Sequence record: ON922918
Source of the DNA: Escherichia phage vB_EcoM_PD328
Direction: 5' to 3' (one strand)
DNA: 59,156 nt
The position numbers were made by a program, and so were the translations under genes. Below, piece by piece: positions 2,044 to 40,048 of this stretch. Numbering within the stretch: the first letter of the stretch is position 1; every line of letters begins with the position of its first letter. The notes under the pieces are model-generated. The model was not told where the DNA came from. It did not search any database and saw nothing but the letters and a program-made list of their open reading frames with translations.

Positions 2044-5000
2044 TAAGCAGCCCTCACAATATAGTTGAATGCAACGTTCTTGACAGTGTTTTCTGTGTTG
2101 CCAGTTGCGTTAACTGTAACACCGTGGCTGTGTGAACCTAAAGCGACTGTGTGACTATGAGCACCAATACCAACTGTATGGGTATGAGCACCAATACCAA
2201 CAGTATGTGCGTGAGCGCCTGCGCTTGCAGCAGTACCAGATATAGAGTGCGAATGTGCCCCAGAAGAAGAAGTTCCAAGCGTATTACCACCACCGGCGGA
2301 TCCTCTTATAGCACCAATACCAGGAGCGTTGTTACTTCCCGCATAAAGAGCGCTTGTGTGGCTGTGCGCACCGGCGGTGTTTGTGGAACCGCTCAAACTA
2401 TGCGTATGCGCACCAGTATTATTACTCGTTTTAGTACCGTAATCGAAACTACTTGTCCCTTTAGTACCGTAATCAAAGCTAGAAGTCGTTTTACTTCCAA
2501 GATCGACAGATGCAGTAGACGCAGTGTGGGTATGCGATTTCACACCATCCGCTTCTGTAGAAAGTACGTCACGACCGCTTGCAGGCTTACCTTTGATAGT
2601 TTGACCACGCATGTCTGGCAGTACGCCCGACGGGTATGCAGCAGCCAATTGAGGGTATGCAGCTTTGTCGAATTCCTGCCCTTGCATCACGATGTATCCG
2701 GACGGAGGTGTATCCGTAGGCCACGGTAATGGGACACCTACAGGTAAACTTTCAGCTACAGGAGGTGGGTTCTTTTTAGTGTAAATTTGATCCCAGCCTT
2801 CTTCGAAACCGTGACCATCACGCGATGTACGATACCAAAGACCGCCATTCCTATACGTAGCTCTTATCTGCAAAGAAGGTGTTGAGGAGACAGCATTTTG
2901 ATAGTAATGCACTACAAGGTCCGAGCTGCCCTTTCTCGCATGCTTATAGACACCAGATATAGCGTTCCATGGAACACTGTTATTGTCTATATCACCTCCT
3001 ACAGTAATAATACCTGTTTGTCCTAACGCAAACGCATTCACGTTTCTAGGTGGAATCGATATATCTCCACTACCATCAAAAAGCACATTAGCAATCCTAC
3101 GTGCTGTCTGTAGTTTGGTGGCAGTTGCAGCGTTACCAGTTGTGTTCTGATTACCCTGAATGTTGACGCCTGGAAGATTGACGTCAGCAGTACCGTCGAA
3201 TGAGGCGCCACCAATTTTACGCGCAGTTTGTAGCTTCGTAGCACTGGACGCGTTACCATTCACACCTTGACCGGCGTTCAATTTAGTGCCAATAGTGAAC
3301 TCACCAGTAGCGTTATCAATCATAAATGGTCTTAGATTGTTCCAACCACCGTATTGATCGCCTTTAGCAGTGAATAAAAGATATGTCTTGGTGCCGTCAT
3401 TGCGCCATAATGCACCGTAGTCCCCACCAATCATACGGACCTGATTTCCACCGCGAGCTACAATTTCATCATTAGCGTAGATTTTACGACCACTAATATC
3501 TACATCCGTGATGAGTGCGTGCGAACTATAAAACCCTTTACCATTCGAGAAATCAAGTATAGTATCGGCCTCAATACATTCTGTTTTAGGGTTTGTGGCG
3601 CCCCATTTGTAAGTTGATTGCCCGATAACATAATCGGCAGATGGTACAACAACAGATAAGCCTTCTTCTACATATACAGCAATAGGAAACGCTTCACCTT
3701 CAACATAGAACACAGAACACAGATCATCCGCTTTGTTACCCATCATGATAGAATGAATAGCACGCTCATTTGCGCTATATGCGTGAAACATCCCATAAGC
3801 ATATTTTCCTCTGTCAGTCCAACCACCGGGCATGACAAATCCGTTGAACTCGCAGTTGTTTAGTCTATGGTCTCCTGTTCTTGAACGTGTACTTATCGTC
3901 ACCCTAGATGCTAATTCATCAACGAATCCAGCAGAACGACGAATGACCACAGGATAAAACTTACCTGCTTCAACTCCTGCGGGAGCATTCACTGTCGAAA
4001 ACTTCATTCCCCGTTTAGCGGCCATATCAGTCTTGCTGGCAGCATTAATGTTACTTAGAAAGCGACCCTTGTCCGGTATATCTGCACCGTTCTGATTCTT
4101 CTGCAATGCACCGAGAGCTAAGTTAACAGTCTCGCGTAAACCAACGTTATCAATGAACAGTTGCTTATTAGGAATGTCAGCACCGTTCTGGTCTTTGGCC
4201 AACTTACTGTTAATAAGTGTGGTTATAGTCGTTGCAAAGTTTGGATCATCACCAAGAGCGTCAGCTAACTCTTTCAGAGTGTTTAACGCATCTGGTGCAT
4301 CACCAATCAGTGCGCTTATAATTTGGTGCACAAACTGAGTTGTGGCAATCTGATTGTTATTAACTTCAGGTGCTGGAGTTGGTGCCGTTGGTACACCAGT
4401 TAGAACAGGACTACTTAACGGAGCTTTAGTATTAGCAACGTCCATGACTGCTTTAACAGCTTTCGGTGTAGCTGCCAGGTTCTCGGCGGTGCTGTTAGTA
4501 TCATTGCTAAGACGAACGATACCTTTAGTAGTCAAGGACGCATCTTCAAGACCAATTGCATCAGCAATCTCTTCCGCACGTTCAGCAGCAGCTTCTGAAC
4601 GCAAGGCGGCAGACTCAGATCTTCCAGCTGATGTACCAGCATTAGTTTCTGACGCTTTAGCGTTGGTTTCGCTCGCTTTAGCTGCGGTAGCACTAGCGGC
4701 AGACTCACCGGCTTTGTTAGTCGCAGTCTGAGCGGAAGCTGCCGCATTAGTTTCAGACGTAGACGCTGAAGCTGCCTTCTGTGTTGCAACCGTCTCACTT
4801 GCCTTAGCTGCATTAGCTGCGGTCTGCGATTTACCAGCAGAAGTAGCGGACTCAACTGCACTTGCTTCGGATGCGGCCTTTGCTGCCTCAGCAGCTACTT
4901 TCGCCTGATTAGCAGTGGTTGCACTTGCAGACGCTTCTTTTGCTTTAGTATCAGCCAAAGTCGCATTATTAGCAGATGCAGTTTCTGATACTTTAGCATT

Positions 5001-6055: not shown

Positions 6056-9000
6056 GAGTAAGTAAAGGATCCTGAACCTCTTGTTACAATCATTGTTGGA
6101 CTTTTTAACCATCTTTTAGTAGCTCCCTGCTTAAATACGATTTTTGCAGTTACAGTTGACGCAGTAACACCTCTAAAAGTAGCCATAACTGTACCAGACG
6201 TGGCCAACATACCACCTTCTGGATCACGAACAGATGTGCCTGCGGCTGCGCTTTTTGTAACACCATTCACGATGATCTCTACCCCTAGTAACGCCCCTGG
6301 ATAGTTAGGGACACCAGAAAGGTTAGCCATGACTGTAATGGTCTTAGTTGTATTAGCTGTATCCTTATACGTGATTGTACGCGACATGTCATATGTACTA
6401 CCTTCGCCGTATAAATCGTCAGCAACACCCATGTTGCATACATCACCAATGAAACTAGTAGCTTCTACAGTCCCTTTGAACTTACCGCTTGTTGCTTGTA
6501 TCTCACCAGTGAATCTACCGCCATTAGCGTATACTATACCTCTGACAGTTACGTTGTTTAATTCAGCATCCCCAGCTTTATTTAACTTCCAACCAGCAGA
6601 ACCAGCTACATAGTTGTTAGATTGAATATAGTTACCGATCTTAGCATTATCAATAGAGCCGTTCTCAATGAACGTCGCCTTCATAAACACTTGACCGTTC
6701 TTAACTGCAAATGCTAAATCCGCTGTGCTGTTAGTTGGGTTATAGATAGCAAAGTTATTAGCGTTCACCATAAAGTAGGATTGGATAGCTCCACCGGAAC
6801 CTTCCATACCCAACTGAATACCAGCAACGTATTTCTGACCTTTACTATCTACCTGGATCTTAGCGCCCCACTGAGCGTTAACGTTACCTTCAAGGTCTAC
6901 AACAGACTTACTGACTTCCTGTACGGTAGCTTTGACCACATCAATCTGTTGGCCGTTTGTCTCGATCAACTTACCTTGAGCATCTATTAACTGCCCCTGT
7001 TCATTGATTGTGACGCCTTGTTGCTGCACTTTACCGTCAACAAGGACTACGGATTGTTGTACTGTGTCAATCGTCTGAGTTAAGCGGCCCTCGGACGTCT
7101 CGATTTGGTTGTCCACATAACTCTTGACACCATCGCTAACGTTTCCAATCTCAGCCATAAGTTCTCTATAGGTGTTAGTACCTTTGAACTCTGTGTCAAT
7201 TTGTGGAATAAGGCCAGCAGCGTCAGTAAAGCATCTTGCAGCCACCTCTACAAAAGAAGACGAACCGAAGGCGTTAATCGCTCGCACGTACCAGTAATAA
7301 GTGTGGTCATTGAGCAGTCCTTCTGAAGTCCACGTTGTACCCATACCGGCACGGGTAGCCTGTTTCTCTACCACATCTACAGCGGCAGATGGTAATCTTG
7401 TTTCACCGGACGTCCAGAAATCATATTGTGTACTAACGTTCGCTAAATCTGCAGATTTTGGTTTCAGTGTTACTGCAAAGTAACCTTGCGTTACTTCAAC
7501 AGATGTAGGAGCAGAAGGTGCCTGAATGTTAAATTCAAGATATGCTTCTGGGCTGGTTGCACCAGTATATGCTACAGCTTTCACATGTGCTGTATAAGCA
7601 CCGCGAATAAGCCCCGTAATTCGCGTGCTCTGGCCCGGTACTTGCACCGTCAATACGGTAACACCATCTTTCTTAATTATTACGTTGTTGTACGCTACAG
7701 CCATTATATTTTGCCACGACAGTACACCCTGTACCACGTCGCTAATCTGTAGGACCTCATATTGTAGGTTCTGAGGTTGCATAGCGCCACCAGTAGGTAG
7801 ATCCACTAAATCCGGTCGGTCTACAGGTTTACCAATCGCATCGTCCCACAAGTCCGGGAAGTCTTGACGCACAGTTACAGTGACACCGCCTTTCGGGTCA
7901 AACTGCCACTTAATGACTCGCATCTCTACCTTGTTCATTCCAATATTAGGAATGTCAACGTAAACGTACATACCTGGACGGAAACGATACCCGCGCATGT
8001 TGCACGGTATTTCAATAGAACGTCCAATGCGTTTGCGTTTCAATGTCAAGTTAGACAGACGTTGTGCCTGGTATGGGCTTGTCACAAAACGATAGTCCAC
8101 GTCTTGTGTAATTTCCTGTCCATCTTGTTTTATCCATTCCGCAACACTTACAGGAGGAAAGTCTGCTTCCTGATAGTTTTGTAGAGGATCAATGTAAGTA
8201 CCTGTGATTGTATTGGTGCGTTCTTTAAAAGCCGTTTCAGGTGTAATTTTAATGTCGCCAGCAATACAACTCGTGTCAAGTGTTAGTTCAGGAGGACCAT
8301 AATATGCACCGACAAGAATACCATGTTTACCGCCAATATAAGTTAACTCTCCGCCACAAGCGTCGAGCATATCCTCCAGAATCTTAGATGGAGCTTCGTC
8401 AATATCAAACTCACCATTTATGGTGTAACGAGGTTCGAATGTATTGTCTGCGTTCCTTACACTTTCATCACAGATATTAGCAGCTTCTTTGAACTGGTCC
8501 CAAAGAATTGCATCATCAGAACGCTTTAAGTATACTCGCAAATAATCTAGAATGACTAGAGCTGCGTTATTGCTAAATACCATCTTACCAGTTCTAGGAT
8601 CTAATACTTTACGACCTTTCTTAAGGCATTTAACGTTAGGTAGACCGGACGGGAATTTTTCAGAATCGAAAACAAGGTTTAATTGCATCCAGCAAATACC
8701 TTTACCAATCATGTCGCTCTTCCATGATGGGCAACGATTCAACATGTCCTGACTAACTTTAGTAGGATTGTTATGTATTACATATGACGCTTTATCACCA
8801 AAACTTTCGATAGCGTCATCACCTAACCACACTTGTCCTACAGCCGTTAGTTCGTGGCCTGCCAATGCAAGAACCAACGTCAGCTTTTCATGGTTCTCAC
8901 CGTGTTTGTCTGGTTCCTGTACTCCCGGTTCCTCTTCCGCAAATACAAGTACACCACTAGATACAGTTGACCCATAAACTACTGTCCTGGATGCAGCAGC

Positions 9001-25432: not shown

Positions 25433-25675
25433 CTACATCTCTGTTTTAGGAATGTACATTATCTCCTGGATGTCTTGTCTCATTTGTTCGACCTTATTGA
25501 CCACATATACAGGTGGTGTTGAAGGTTGCAAATTTACCCTGTGTCTCTTGTGCATCTGATCAATGGCGATAGCACTGACTCCGATTTGTGTAAGTCCAAT
25601 CATCATATAGATGAAAAGCAGTCGTGGTTTCTTACACAATATAAGAAGATCATTGATGAAATGACGCATAATCAA
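25433..25675 (-). CDS. small membrane protein (lysis-associated, possible holin/antiholin)
   Basis: 80 aa with one predicted transmembrane segment (LLFIYMMIGLTQIGVSAIAI); adjacent to the lysis cassette. Confidence 0.3.
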   Translation of the reverse strand: MIMRHFINDLLILCKKPRLLFIYMMIGLTQIGVSAIAIDQMHKRHRVNLQPSTPPVYVVNKVEQMRQDIQEIMYIPKTEM

Positions 25676-25980
25676 CCTCTTTCCTTTTCTCGGTCATATG
25701 CTTGCGTTTTTCTCTGTAGAAACTTTAGCATGGTTCTTGAACCTGACCAAGATAACACGCCTATGAACGCCCCACTGAGCCCAAGTGGGACACCATGTTC
25801 CACGTTAATTACACCTATCAAGAAACCAAAGAATGCAGAAAAAGCACCCTCTTGAATGAAGGAGCTGAGTCTGAACCTTTCTTTAGCATCATGGGTTCTT
25901 GCAGCGTAGCCAAGGGAACCCCCTACCATCGCAATGGCAGTGAGAATAAAGACTATATTCCAATCCCAGTTCGGCGACAC
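25672..25980 (-). CDS. holin (putative)
   Basis: 102 aa with two to three hydrophobic transmembrane segments and a charged C-terminus; directly downstream of the endolysin gene. Confidence 0.45.
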   Translation of the reverse strand: MSPNWDWNIVFILTAIAMVGGSLGYAARTHDAKERFRLSSFIQEGAFSAFFGFLIGVINVEHGVPLGLSGAFIGVLSWSGSRTMLKFLQRKTQAYDREKERG

Positions 25981-26428: not shown

Positions 26429-26519
26429 AAAAAAGCTCCATTCAGTTAAACCGAATAGAGCATAGTTGAATTATCACACGCACACAATCAATTATGTGCA
26501 ATTAGGATGGAACGTTTAG

Positions 26520-26864
26520 TTACGCAATCCGGCAAGGACTTTGCAGTTTATCACCGTTCTTTACGCGGATTTCGCATTGCATCATACTGTAGTTCGCACT
26601 GCTCGCCGGCAAGACGATACTTTTCAGCCTCTTCTGCCATTTGTCTGTATTCTGTGACGCTTTCTGAATACAGTTCGGTGAGCACACGGGCGATCTGGGC
26701 GGTTGTCTTGCTGTCGGGCTGAGGGCCGGTAGCGTCACCGAGGTACTTACGGATGGTTGTGATTTCGTTGTGCAACCTGTCATTAGTAGCACGATAATCA
26801 TTAAGATCGGCAACCAAAGACTCAATGCGAGATTGGTACTGGCGTTCGATAACGTCTTTCTCAT
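26520..26864 (-). CDS. o-spanin (Rz1-like outer-membrane lipoprotein), embedded in the i-spanin gene
   Basis: Alternative frame inside the i-spanin ORF; signal peptide ending in lipobox LMTGC; Pro-rich mature part with a C-terminal Cys. Confidence 0.6.
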   Translation of the reverse strand: MRKTLSNASTNLALSLWLPILMIIVLLMTGCTTKSQPSVSTSVTLPALSPTARQPPRSPVCSPNCIQKASQNTDKWQKRLKSIVLPASSANYSMMQCEIRVKNGDKLQSPCRIA

Positions 26865-27051
26865 ACGCTCTTCTTTTCTCCTCCTCGAAATCAATCGCTT
26901 TCTGAGTTTCTTTTTGGTACGACACACCGGCATCGAAACCCTCCTTTCTAGCTGTTTCTATGGCATTGTCATAAGCCCAGTTGGCTAGAATAACAATTAG
27001 GACAAGTGGTATCCAAGGTGCAACCAAACCGATTATTTTTCTAAGGAGCAT
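26551..27051 (-). CDS. i-spanin (Rz-like)
   Basis: 166 aa; N-terminal transmembrane segment (IIGLVAPWIPLVLIVILANW) followed by a charged coiled-coil periplasmic domain. Confidence 0.6.
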   Translation of the reverse strand: MLLRKIIGLVAPWIPLVLIVILANWAYDNAIETARKEGFDAGVSYQKETQKAIDFEEEKRRAYEKDVIERQYQSRIESLVADLNDYRATNDRLHNEITTIRKYLGDATGPQPDSKTTAQIARVLTELYSESVTEYRQMAEEAEKYRLAGEQCELQYDAMRNPRKER

Positions 27052-27260
27052 ACCTTCTCACCAATTCCCATAGACAAGTATTGAATCGCAAGAAGAAATG
27101 CTATAGCTTCCTTCGTATCCCCTAAGTCTTTAAGGGTCTTGAACGTATCTTCAAGTTGCTGCACGTACTTCTCGAATTGTGGTAAGGCATCAATCTCAGC
27201 AGCAGCTCCGCGCATATACACTCTTGCAGCCGCTAATTGTGCGTCAGAAGTATCACTCAT
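27033..27260 (-). CDS. hypothetical protein
   Basis: 75 aa ORF in the minus-strand early block. Confidence 0.3.
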   Translation of the reverse strand: MSDTSDAQLAAARVYMRGAAAEIDALPQFEKYVQQLEDTFKTLKDLGDTKEAIAFLLAIQYLSMGIGEKVCSLEK

Positions 27261-27472
27261 GATATTCTCCAGATTACACTATTTCGAATTTCATCATTCC
27301 AAACGTATTTCCCCTTCTCGCCATTTTTATAGGATGGAACAGAAAAAACGGAGGAACTTGGATATAGATCTGATGTTGTTAAGCGTATACGCTTACCGTC
27401 AAAAGGTCCACCAACACAAAGGAACAGACCAGTCTTAGGTTTCTTCAAAATGGTTCCTCCTCGTCTGTACAC
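27257..27472 (-). CDS. hypothetical protein
   Basis: 71 aa ORF overlapping its neighbours by 4 nt. Confidence 0.3.
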   Translation of the reverse strand: MYRRGGTILKKPKTGLFLCVGGPFDGKRIRLTTSDLYPSSSVFSVPSYKNGEKGKYVWNDEIRNSVIWRIS

Positions 27473-27939
27473 TGAGCCATTTTAAGAGTATAAGCTACGT
27501 CATAGAAGTCAACACCCTGACCACAGCTATCGCAGTAATGGCAGGCCAATCTCACAGCTTCTTCTGCGCCGCAACCTGCCGCCATTGTACCCATCAAGAA
27601 CTCAAACGCACTACCCTCGGCAATAAATTCGTTAGTGTCTGGTAGACCCAATTTACCATCGCCGTAGATAGGATACACGACAAGTTCCTGCGTCACTGCA
27701 ATACCATAACGGGAATCTGGATTCATATCCGAGAAAGGTTCTTTACGTCCACGAACCGTAGTTTTCAGATGTTCTACAATGTCATTTACAGGACGTAGTT
27801 TACCAGACATTGCAACAAGACACAGTCCAACCCCTGGAATATTGACAGTATGAACTTTATTCGTAGTTGTTGCAATATTACCCCATGTGACCTGACGATC
27901 CACAGCCAGTATACCATCACGATAAGCAATTGCGGTCAT
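27445..27939 (-). CDS. HslV/proteasome-beta-like Ntn-hydrolase peptidase (putative)
   Basis: Starts MT-AIAYRDGILAVDRQVTWGN, paralleling the HslV N-terminus (MTTIVSVRRNG...GDGQATLGN) with Thr as residue 2; later GSAFEF...GxGVDFY resembles the HslV GSGG region. Confidence 0.5.
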   Translation of the reverse strand: MTAIAYRDGILAVDRQVTWGNIATTTNKVHTVNIPGVGLCLVAMSGKLRPVNDIVEHLKTTVRGRKEPFSDMNPDSRYGIAVTQELVVYPIYGDGKLGLPDTNEFIAEGSAFEFLMGTMAAGCGAEEAVRLACHYCDSCGQGVDFYDVAYTLKMAQCTDEEEPF

Positions 27940-28289
27940 ATTAAACGCCCATATATGTGATAAATTTTATAAGCAGTGGAAAGACCAATATTGAATTCTC
28001 TCGCTGCAACCTGAAATCTATTCTCTTTACCAGTGTAATTTCTGAGAAATTGATAAATTTCCTCTTTATCCATGTGTCTGTTTCGCACAAGTGTTGGCGA
28101 CCAAAGCCGGCGCATTTCGAGCGTAGCCGCGAATCTTCGCTTGATCTGAGCTACTGTACCAACGTACCAATACTTTGCCCCATTTTGCCCAATAGCCGCG
28201 TGGACGCACCGCGGCGTACCTGTTTTAGCGAACTTGCGCTTTGCAAATTCACACGCGAGTTCCGCATTGTCAAAACGTTGCAAGCCCAT
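27936..28289 (-). CDS. hypothetical protein (possible DNA-binding)
   Basis: 117 aa basic protein; C-terminal segment (GLSTAYKIYHIYG) could form a helix-turn-helix. Confidence 0.3.
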   Translation of the reverse strand: MGLQRFDNAELACEFAKRKFAKTGTPRCVHAAIGQNGAKYWYVGTVAQIKRRFAATLEMRRLWSPTLVRNRHMDKEEIYQFLRNYTGKENRFQVAAREFNIGLSTAYKIYHIYGRLI

Positions 28290-28292
28290 AAA

Positions 28293-28733
28293 TCACCCCG
28301 GCAATATAATTTCGTAATCAATCAGGAAAGACCGCAGAGGATACGCCAGATCGTTACCCTCTGCAACGTGGTCATAGGAATAGTATTGTTTCCCTTGCAG
28401 ACCTTTACATGGGTCATATACCTTAACATCACCGAAGCGAGCGTCAATAATGATCTGATGGAAAAGTCCAGGTAGCTGCAAAGAGGGTACAGTCGCAAGA
28501 TACAAGCGCCCAGGTCGAATCTGGTGCATACCAGCAGTGATATGCGGCTGTGCAAAGACACCATGCTTATACAGATAGTTCGACACGTCAGTAAAACCAT
28601 GAATATAATCATTTGTGAACTCGTCATACACCTGCTCAGGGTCTTTGTCAAGAAGCATAGCAAGGCAGGTAGGGATGCAAGCCATTATGCTTTTCTGAGT
28701 TTTATGCTTGATTGGGTCATTGATAGTAATCAT
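28293..28733 (-). CDS. papain-like cysteine peptidase, C39-like (putative)
   Basis: N-terminal QKSIMACIPTCLAMLL resembles the C39 peptidase Q...C...CLAM active-site region; downstream His (HQIIIDARFGD) and Asp candidates. Confidence 0.4.
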   Translation of the reverse strand: MITINDPIKHKTQKSIMACIPTCLAMLLDKDPEQVYDEFTNDYIHGFTDVSNYLYKHGVFAQPHITAGMHQIRPGRLYLATVPSLQLPGLFHQIIIDARFGDVKVYDPCKGLQGKQYYSYDHVAEGNDLAYPLRSFLIDYEIILPG

Positions 28734-29071
28734 TAGAACACTTCCTTAAACAAATCAAATTTAACATGCTCGTAGATTTTATTCAGCTGAGTCAGCTTAC
28801 GAATAAATTCTTTACTGGTATTCTCGTCAATTGCACAGGTATCCGTCTGGATCTTCCATGTGTCGGAACGCAAGCGAAGCAGGAACGAACCGTTCGGGTA
28901 AACCGTCTTCGCTTCTGGCATATAGTGCAGAATACAGGATATCGTCCCTTCAGGTGGTATAAGAACAATATAAGTATCATTCACGTCGCTGTGACTAATA
29001 ATCCAACCGCTCTGCAACAAAGCATCCCGGAGCTGGCAATACATTTTCGGAATAACGATATCTTTGGCCAT
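28733..29071 (-). CDS. hypothetical protein
   Basis: 112 aa ORF, translationally coupled to neighbours. Confidence 0.3.
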   Translation of the reverse strand: MAKDIVIPKMYCQLRDALLQSGWIISHSDVNDTYIVLIPPEGTISCILHYMPEAKTVYPNGSFLLRLRSDTWKIQTDTCAIDENTSKEFIRKLTQLNKIYEHVKFDLFKEVF

Positions 29072-29436
29072 TATTGTACTTCCACAATTAATAATTCACC
29101 ATGACGTACACGAGCAAGTTCGTATAAATCTTGTTTCTGCGCAATGTCCAATTGGCAATCAAGGATTGCAATATCACAATGGAAGCCACTCGTACGAATG
29201 ACAGTGTCTTCATATGAGGCTTTGTGATAAGAAACCAAACGAATGTGGAAACGATCAAACTGTACTACGGACGACTCACGCGACAGTTGCACACAGCGAA
29301 CGAATTCAGGATCTTCACGCAACACTTCTTCGAGCTGGCGGCGATAATCATTATTCGGACACAAAGTAAAAGCGATGCGATCGTCTTTCAACTGTGGCCT
29401 CAACATAGACCAGGCTTTAACTATATTCTCGTTCAT
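29071..29436 (-). CDS. hypothetical protein (first gene of the minus-strand early operon)
   Basis: 121 aa ORF adjacent to the divergent control region. Confidence 0.3.
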   Translation of the reverse strand: MNENIVKAWSMLRPQLKDDRIAFTLCPNNDYRRQLEEVLREDPEFVRCVQLSRESSVVQFDRFHIRLVSYHKASYEDTVIRTSGFHCDIAILDCQLDIAQKQDLYELARVRHGELLIVEVQ

Positions 29437-29941
29437 ATAACCCCCTTTAACGTTAACGGAATAACTATAGCAGGATACGCAAGTTGATTAACATACGTGA
29501 TCGCAACAATTAATAACCACAGTTAGTCGTCTCGTGTGCTTTAATTCATGATGCCGCAAATCAGCTACGCATACCGGCAAACCGAATATTGTAATCGTCT
29601 CTCGAGTATTTACATACGGAACTAGCTTCATACGAACAATATAGGACAGGTGAGGTGGGGATACAAAGTGTCTAGTGACGAGATAATCTACAAACGATGA
29701 ATCCTTGGCAGAGATCTAAGAGCCGCCCCGCGGCGTTACTATAACGTCCCGTGATCGTCAGTGAGGTGATTGTTACGTCATGTGACTGTCGCGCGCTCTA
29801 TTGTAACGTTGTTTATTATTACACGCGTTATTATTTTTTATTTGATTAGTGTGCTATCTATCGCATGACTATATTATACCGTCCAGTATAATTACATCTG
29901 TTACTATCTACCTGCCCACTATGTGCTGTCTATGTATGTGC

Positions 29942-30008
29942 TACCTGGTATTTCCTGCGCGTGCTGTTACCTGGTATTTTCGACACGCTCGCGCTACCTG
30001 GTATTTCC
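29942..30008. repeat. three direct repeats of TACCTGGTATTTYC in the divergent intergenic region
   Basis: Copies at about 29942, 29968 and 29995 with 26-27 bp periodicity, each preceded by GTGCT. Confidence 0.6.
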
Positions 30009-30089
30009 GGCACACCGTCTACCGTATAGTCCCGGATGTTATTATTATGAAACACAACTAAAAAAGTTCTAAAATAATGCAGATAATAG

Positions 30090-30118
30090 TTGCATCTGAT
30101 ACCCTGCTGTCATATTAT
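30090..30118 (+). promoter_or_regulatory. sigma70-type early promoter (TTGCAT-17 bp-TATTAT)
   Basis: Near-consensus -35 and -10 hexamers with a 17-bp spacer, about 75 nt upstream of the first plus-strand gene. Confidence 0.55.
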
Positions 30119-30193
30119 AAACGCGTGGGGTAAAGGGGGTTTTCAAGCGGGACACGGGTTCCGCGCCCGCTTCACCCGAAGGGAGATTGCATT

Positions 30194-39769: not shown

Positions 39770-40048
39770 ATGTCCAGTTACAATCTAGCAGCTATTAAAA
39801 TTGTGTACGGCGCTCTATACCAGGATGAAGAATTCCCAGGCATTGAGCAGGCAATTAAAAGAATCAAGTCCAATCGTGTTGACTCGGAACAACTGTTCGC
39901 CTATGCTTTAGCCATAAGTAAGAACGAGGTCCGTCCTTACTATGAAACGCTGTCACGCCAGTTACGAAGTGTAATAGAAGAACGTGACTTAATGCGGCAC
40001 TGTGGATACACCTTCTTAACCGGTAGAGCCATACGTGTCAGCAAATAA
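39770..40048 (+). CDS. hypothetical protein
   Basis: 92 aa ORF. Confidence 0.35.
   Translation: MSSYNLAAIKIVYGALYQDEEFPGIEQAIKRIKSNRVDSEQLFAYALAISKNEVRPYYETLSRQLRSVIEERDLMRHCGYTFLTGRAIRVSK

Follow-up and report, generated by a model that had tools for sequence, protein, structure and literature searches.

A stand-alone family of C39-like cysteine peptidases predicted in phages, prophages and satellites

The stretch of 59,156 nucleotides from Escherichia phage vB_EcoM_PD328 analysed here (sequence record ON922918, hereafter the window) carries on its minus strand, at positions 28293..28733, a gene for a protein of 146 amino acids. According to our model and alignments, this protein is a stand-alone C39-like (clan CA) cysteine peptidase with a papain fold and an intact active site. 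The family to which it belongs is confined to phages, prophages and satellites and has no fixed gene neighbour. The window covers nearly the whole genome of a 9g-like siphophage (Nonagvirus, Queuovirinae); over the 3 kb tested it is 89-94% identical to BRET, SE1, FritzHoffmann, JenK1 and 9g. Its minus-strand genes, from ~1.5 to 29.4 kb, encode virion, terminase and lysis functions followed by a block of small genes, and its plus-strand genes, from 30.2 kb, serve replication and 7-deazaguanine modification.

The open reading frame (ORF) lies exactly where the original prediction had placed it; the strand had not been stated there. A Shine-Dalgarno-like AAGGAAG is found ~8 nt upstream of the ATG (28741..28747, minus strand). 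Translational coupling to the upstream gene is suggested by a TAATG overlap, in which the ATG shares bases with the stop codon of that gene. The ORF is a real gene, because its product matches PHROG 4049 (E 4e-54; function not assigned), orthologs are present in 17 Nonagvirus records, the ratio of nonsynonymous to synonymous substitution rates (dN/dS) is 0.08-0.22 against 9g and ESCO3, and a scan of the 146 residues found no hydrophobic segment. The dN/dS values indicate strong purifying selection. The ortholog in 9g, gp42, is annotated as "hypothetical protein", while the depositors of ESCO3 labelled theirs (ESCO3_00050) "papain-like cysteine protease AvrRpt2". A peptidase 97.9% identical to that of the window is encoded by FritzHoffmann, a publicly available BASEL phage.

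The claim of a papain-fold C39-like cysteine peptidase is supported by an AlphaFold2 model, by comparison of profiles with hhalign and by a conserved catalytic tetrad. The model was built from an alignment (A1) of 19 close homolog clusters and has a mean predicted local distance difference test score (pLDDT) of 93.2 and a predicted TM-score (pTM) of 0.90. It has a papain-like alpha+beta fold, and its nearest structural neighbours are C39 domains. Josephin and UfSP are also among the fold neighbours, with C39 domains scoring above any deubiquitinase (DUB). Foldseek gave weaker support, with a best E-value of 3e-3. In the model, Cys19 begins helix 19-28, His92 is on strand 91-100 and Asp107 follows strand 102-106, and these places in the secondary structure agree with the published description of LahT.

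A profile match to C39, proposed as a check in the original prediction, was not obtained with a single sequence and was obtained in a deeper comparison of family profiles. Searched alone against Pfam, the window protein gave no match at E up to 10. With hhalign, the family reached a probability of 29.6% against a single ComA peptidase sequence (100% identical to PDB 8hf7 residues 1-140) and 81.5% (E 1.1e-5, 107 columns) against an alignment of 84 ComA-type sequences. In both alignments Q13/C19/H92/D107-P108 are paired with ComA Q11/C17/H96/D112-P113. In an exhaustive profile search, E<=1e-3 was reached by 674 clusters (at 50% identity) and E<=1e-10 by 326; nearly all of the 150 matches listed are stand-alone proteins of 135-160 amino acids, and the ten diverse family members that we checked are all metagenomic sequences. 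Nine of 149 members match Pfam Peptidase_C39 by themselves at E<=0.01, the best at 2.4e-6, and among the Pfam matches of the 149 no second protease family turns up repeatedly. For one member, P0016, the Peptidase_C39 match spans the Gln...Cys segment and scores 17.4 bits against a gathering cut-off of 22 bits. Searches of PDB sequences using hidden Markov models of the narrow and the broad family gave no significant match, and scans of the peptidase against NCBIfam and PADLOC profiles returned no family.

The N-terminal motif that had been likened to the C39 active-site cysteine region, QKSIMACIPTCLAMLL, covers residues 13-28 and contains both Gln13, the predicted oxyanion-hole residue (codon 28695..28697, minus strand, as are all the codons given here), and Cys19, the predicted nucleophile (28677..28679). 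The downstream histidine and aspartate candidates can be identified as His92, the predicted general base (28458..28460), and Asp107, the predicted third member of the triad (28413..28415), which belongs to an invariant D-P-x-x-G motif. Asp97 varies in distant homologs (set of 89). The distances Q-C, C-H and H-D are 6, 73 and 15 residues, compared with 6, 74 and 16 in LahT, whose published active site is Q21/C27/H101/D117, and 6, 79 and 16 in ComA. The Cys-His spacing, on which the original prediction had made its claim depend, is thus compatible with a papain-like C39 fold.

Conservation was measured over the window protein together with 168 homologs (169 sequences). Gln13 and Cys19 are each kept in 166 of 167 sequences, His92 in 169 of 169 and Asp107-Pro108 in 168 of 168; Gly111 (155/165), Ser84 (165/169) and Tyr118 (161/168) are further conserved positions. 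In an independent set of 89 matches the active-site positions are kept in 83-89, and none of the 83 sequences aligned there lacks Cys19. Judged from these alignments, the conservation of the active site is far above chance. Fold, hhalign pairing, spacing and conservation together point to a C39-like enzyme with an intact active site, not to an inactive domain of the HlyB type. A second cysteine, Cys23 (C19-x3-C23; 28665-28667), is present in ~90% of the family (151/168 and 85/89) and has no counterpart in ComA; it may have a structural or redox-regulatory role. The auto-processing of the toxin StbD-CT is redox-regulated.

The family shares with Peptidase C39 (PF03412; MEROPS C39) its catalytic layout, that is a cysteine at the N-terminus of a helix, histidine and aspartate on successive strands and a glutamine at -6; however, the Pfam threshold is reached neither by the window protein nor by P0016. 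The C39 peptidases of PCAT/AMS ATP-binding cassette (ABC) transporters (ComA-PEP, LahT150, PCAT1) are domains of transporters, whereas the phage protein stands alone. No ABC transporter was found among the window ORFs or in a relative's annotation, and a regular-expression scan of all ORFs on the strand of the arm found no strict double-glycine leader; the only loose match in the proteome is the N-terminal transmembrane helix of the holin. The motif VPSLN, the second cysteine at +4 and Tyr118 also set the family apart from the transporter peptidases, as does its carriage by phages, prophages and satellites. The most fitting description is that of a separate clade of stand-alone proteins beside C39.

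The C39-type toxins Cpe1 (type VI secretion system, T6SS) and StbD-CT/CdiA-CT (PDB 8ssm, 8ssk) have a C39-like catalytic domain in common with the phage protein. In contrast to it, they possess delivery domains (PAAR, or CdiA with a YajC-dependent entry domain) and an immunity gene. No link to Cpe1 or StbD-CT could be detected with sequence profiles, and by structural comparison the toxins are no nearer to the phage clade than the transporter domains are. The word "phage" occurs neither in the Cpe1 paper nor in the sections read of the StbD paper, and neither of the two links the family to phages. Peptidase C70 (AvrRpt2) shares a papain-like fold and a triad with the phage protein. The AvrRpt2/C70 label given in ESCO3 was nevertheless rejected, because the closest structural match is C39 and not C70.

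By tblastn against phage records the family is found in ~170-196 records, almost always annotated as "hypothetical", and the neighbours in BFVD are likewise "uncharacterized". In Queuovirinae, Vid5 and PMBT14, which are related siphophages, only a few genes separate it from the lysis cassette; among these phages are the window, ESCO3, 9g, CAjan, a Klebsiella phage and 58-kb Vibrio phages. The neighbours common in related siphophages are a holin (five lineages), an HslV-family peptidase (four) and LysB/spanin genes (three). In two subfamilies of Ackermannviridae the gene is located between the gene for the large subunit of topoisomerase II and a gp52-like topoisomerase II gene, with overlapping stop and start codons (positions 3992-4441 of locus L004, Kuttervirus Marshall, and 3492-3938 of L007, Agtrevirus AG3). 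In Vequintavirinae, SM1 and phiVC8 it sits within arrays of small hypothetical genes.

A large protein search also found copies on enterobacterial chromosomes. In lambdoid or Rac-like prophages of Raoultella, Citrobacter, Enterobacter and Serratia, the copies occupy an accessory stretch bounded on one side by recombination genes (RecE/RecT or Gam-RecT-YqaJ, in some cases with a Dam-type methylase) and on the other by xis/int. In a Salmonella P4-like satellite, which has an epsilon-type derepression protein, an alpha-type primase and Ogr/Delta, the homolog is the terminal cargo (7001-7411 in both L024 and L025) and adjoins Ogr/Delta and the chromosomal aceBAK. Terminal cargo positions of P4-like elements often house defence genes, and a role of the satellite copy in conflicts between mobile elements is possible. 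The catalytic tetrad is kept in all prophage and satellite copies. None of the neighbours of the window gene recurs beside these copies, and no conserved partner gene was found across the lytic, temperate and satellite contexts. The peptidase gene is therefore an autonomous single-gene module. Many carriers are known to have, or are suspected of having, hypermodified DNA, namely Queuovirinae and Vid5 (7-deazaguanines), ViI-like Ackermannviridae (modified thymidine) and phiVC8 (2-aminoadenine); this link may only mirror the sampling of lytic phages of Gammaproteobacteria.

We consider it reasonably probable that the protein is a soluble, cytoplasmic and competent C39-like cysteine endopeptidase that acts on a protein of the host, of a competitor or of a defence system. 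Cys19, activated by His92 and Asp107, would attack a peptide or isopeptide bond beside small residues. By analogy with all characterised C39 enzymes the cleavage site would be of the Gly-Gly type; as described for LahT, its narrow cleft of the C39 type would admit small residues at P1 and P2. The enzyme would work in the cytoplasm, and its substrate, either a host protein that is conserved or one belonging to a competing element or defence system, would be cut after infection or induction to the benefit of the phage. Such a substrate is favoured because the gene moves alone into satellites and among phages whose virion and lysis modules are unrelated, and because lambdoid prophages carry it in their early-left accessory region. 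The target is probably a host protein, and a lineage-specific phage protein is less likely.

The most concrete candidate for a target is the ATPase subunit of host gyrase/topoisomerase IV with its HAGGK site, by analogy with Cpe1 and StbD-CT. The family would then be a viral protease that shuts off host type II topoisomerases through the HAGGK ATP-lid of GyrB/ParE. In Ackermannviridae, the gene would be coupled to a phage topoisomerase II without the Gly-Gly site, which takes the place of the host enzymes, and the prophage copies would be host-shutoff genes acting at induction. The ATPase subunit of Ackermannviridae phages has YAGSNF at the position of the HAGGKF cleavage motif of GyrB, and the phage proteins Igy and Gip are known to target gyrase. 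Topoisomerase is the leading specific candidate because of the placement of the gene in Ackermannviridae, the YAGSNF sequence and this known targeting of gyrase by phages. A scan of the phage proteome found no HAGGK-like motif.

We nevertheless rate the topoisomerase candidate low, because five points weigh against it. There is no topoisomerase of their own in Nonagviruses, as judged from the window ORFs. The divergence of the site may be general to T4-type and eukaryotic-type topoisomerase II. The gene order in Ackermannviridae can be accidental, and structural proximity does not favour the toxins over the transporter domains. Finally, single Gly-to-Ser changes left GyrB cleavable by StbD-CT. 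Taken together, topoisomerase shutoff by this family appears doubtful.

An activity of another kind would be that of a DUB-like anti-defence enzyme, which strips or clips conjugates of ubiquitin-like proteins or of C-terminal glycines made by Bil-type or CBASS Cap2-type systems and so disarms immunity; phage DUBs may act on such conjugation systems. The presence of Josephin and UfSP among the fold neighbours and the location of the gene in accessory regions are consistent with this. However, C39 domains score above any DUB, and the PADLOC scan gave no link to a defence system, so that we regard a deconjugase as unlikely. The protein could also be an inactive C39-like binding domain, as in HlyB, or the ORF could be spurious. 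Both are extremely improbable: the HlyB-type C39-like domain (CLD) has no catalytic cysteine, whereas the nucleophile Cys19 is kept in the phage family (166/167; 83/83) and the tetrad in essentially all homologs, the dN/dS values are those given above, and the family counts hundreds of clusters.

Two further explanations start from lysis. The peptidase could process a phage protein, either by cutting the holin at the invariant Gly-Gly where its first transmembrane domain ends on the cytoplasmic side, which could tune the timing of lysis, or by maturing the HslV-family peptidase. The same holin family is found within a few genes of the peptidase in five siphophage lineages, and an HslV-like peptidase is near in four. 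The holin of the window (25672-25980, minus strand) has an N-terminal transmembrane helix ending in GGxLGY, a motif that is also present in L003, L011, L012 and L013 and is thus invariant in all five lineages, and this N-terminus is the sole loose match to a double-glycine leader in the proteome. On the other hand, glycines in transmembrane helices are commonly conserved, and a leader-like hydrophobic pattern is trivial within a transmembrane segment. The HslV-like protein begins with Met-Thr and needs no removal of a propeptide, and it is split in 9g. The homologs in Ackermannviridae, Vequintavirinae, SM1, phiVC8, lambdoid prophages and P4-like satellites have no such neighbours, which makes lysis-linked processing quite improbable. 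Even less credence can be given to a cell-wall isopeptidase or amidase that aids lysis, after the pseudomurein endoisopeptidases PeiW, PeiP and PeiR. These C71 enzymes of methanogen phages are larger, bear wall-binding repeats and act on archaeal pseudomurein, whereas the phage protein is small, and the sequence match of the phage family to them is not significant (E 0.78).

As a fold assignment the result is not new, because annotators have recognised the fold twice, in ESCO3 and in SeF6a ("ABC-type bacteriocin transporter peptidase domain"). In contrast, the large size of the family, its autonomy and its spread over lytic phages, the early-left region of prophages and satellites appear to be unreported in the libraries and papers searched, as do its placement beside the topoisomerase genes of Ackermannviridae and the link to the toxin work of 2025-2026. 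Literature searches for a phage C39 peptidase, or for a phage protease acting on GyrB, found nothing relevant, and none of the libraries and papers searched records a function for the family. The C39 enzymes characterised so far act as leader peptidases bound to transporters or, as known since 2025, as antibacterial toxins that are delivered. The phage family (674 clusters) provides a third setting, in which a free-standing enzyme with a fully conserved active site travels as a single mobile gene through lytic phages of several families, lambdoid prophages and P4-like satellites. Genes of this kind commonly serve to manipulate the host or to counter defence, and a narrow specificity of the Gly-Gly type would imply one or few precise targets. 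If the target were gyrase or topoisomerase IV, this would be the first viral proteolytic inactivation of host topoisomerases, as far as our searches show, and a mechanistic tie between phage takeover and interbacterial toxins. The finding of the family is solid, while this most exciting reading is weakly supported.

In the window, the peptidase gene belongs to a leftward block (26435..29436, minus strand) that runs from a divergent intergenic region to a terminator-like hairpin and contains gp40-like, gp41-like, C39-like and gp43-like genes, the HslV-family peptidase gene, two small ORFs and a spanin gene. The hairpin (26435-26461, minus strand) is strong, with a 12-bp stem and a T-run, and lies between the spanin and endolysin genes; on paper it separates two transcription units within the lysis genes. 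The leftward and rightward arms diverge from an intergenic region at 29437-30193. The original prediction had placed the peptidase among early genes. This timing is not established for the window, because a scan of the divergent region for sigma-70 promoters found no more promoter-like sites than expected from shuffled sequences, and a literature search for expression data on Queuovirinae found nothing relevant. The prophage copies in the early-left region, which in lambda is occupied by the PL early-left operon, and the arrays of small genes in Vequintavirinae point towards an early or accessory status and give it indirect support, by analogy.

The gene of the HslV-family (N-terminal nucleophile hydrolase, proteasome-like) peptidase lies two genes downstream of the C39-like gene (27445-27939, minus strand; PHROG 1040, E 7e-35). 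Its product begins with Met-Thr, which makes the threonine a possible N-terminal nucleophile. An HslU-like partner was not seen. The proximity of the two peptidase genes is conserved in ESCO3, CAjan, a Klebsiella Queuovirinae phage and Vid5, but in 9g the HslV-like gene is broken into two ORFs. The HslV-like peptidase was rejected as an obligate partner, because it is restricted to related siphophages and split in 9g. The flanking small genes, gp43-like (27936-28289) and gp40-like (29071-29436), both on the minus strand, have no Pfam support and may be regulators. The gp43-like protein has a C-terminus resembling a helix-turn-helix, and its match to an annotated "late transcriptional activator" of a Klebsiella relative (E 0.033) is too weak to use. 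The 9g ortholog of the gp40-like gene bears the note "potential sigma factor". A second ESCO3 protein (ESCO3_00030), annotated as "putative cysteine protease", is 97% identical to the product of a window ORF of 92 amino acids (39770-40048, plus strand); the label looks unsupported, as the window protein has a single cysteine and no significant Pfam match. A perfect leftward TATAAT is found near 29871-29876. The divergent intergenic region also contains three 19-nt direct repeats (GCTACCTGGTATTTCC...), 26-27 nt apart (29940-30011), which may be binding sites of a regulator or iterons.
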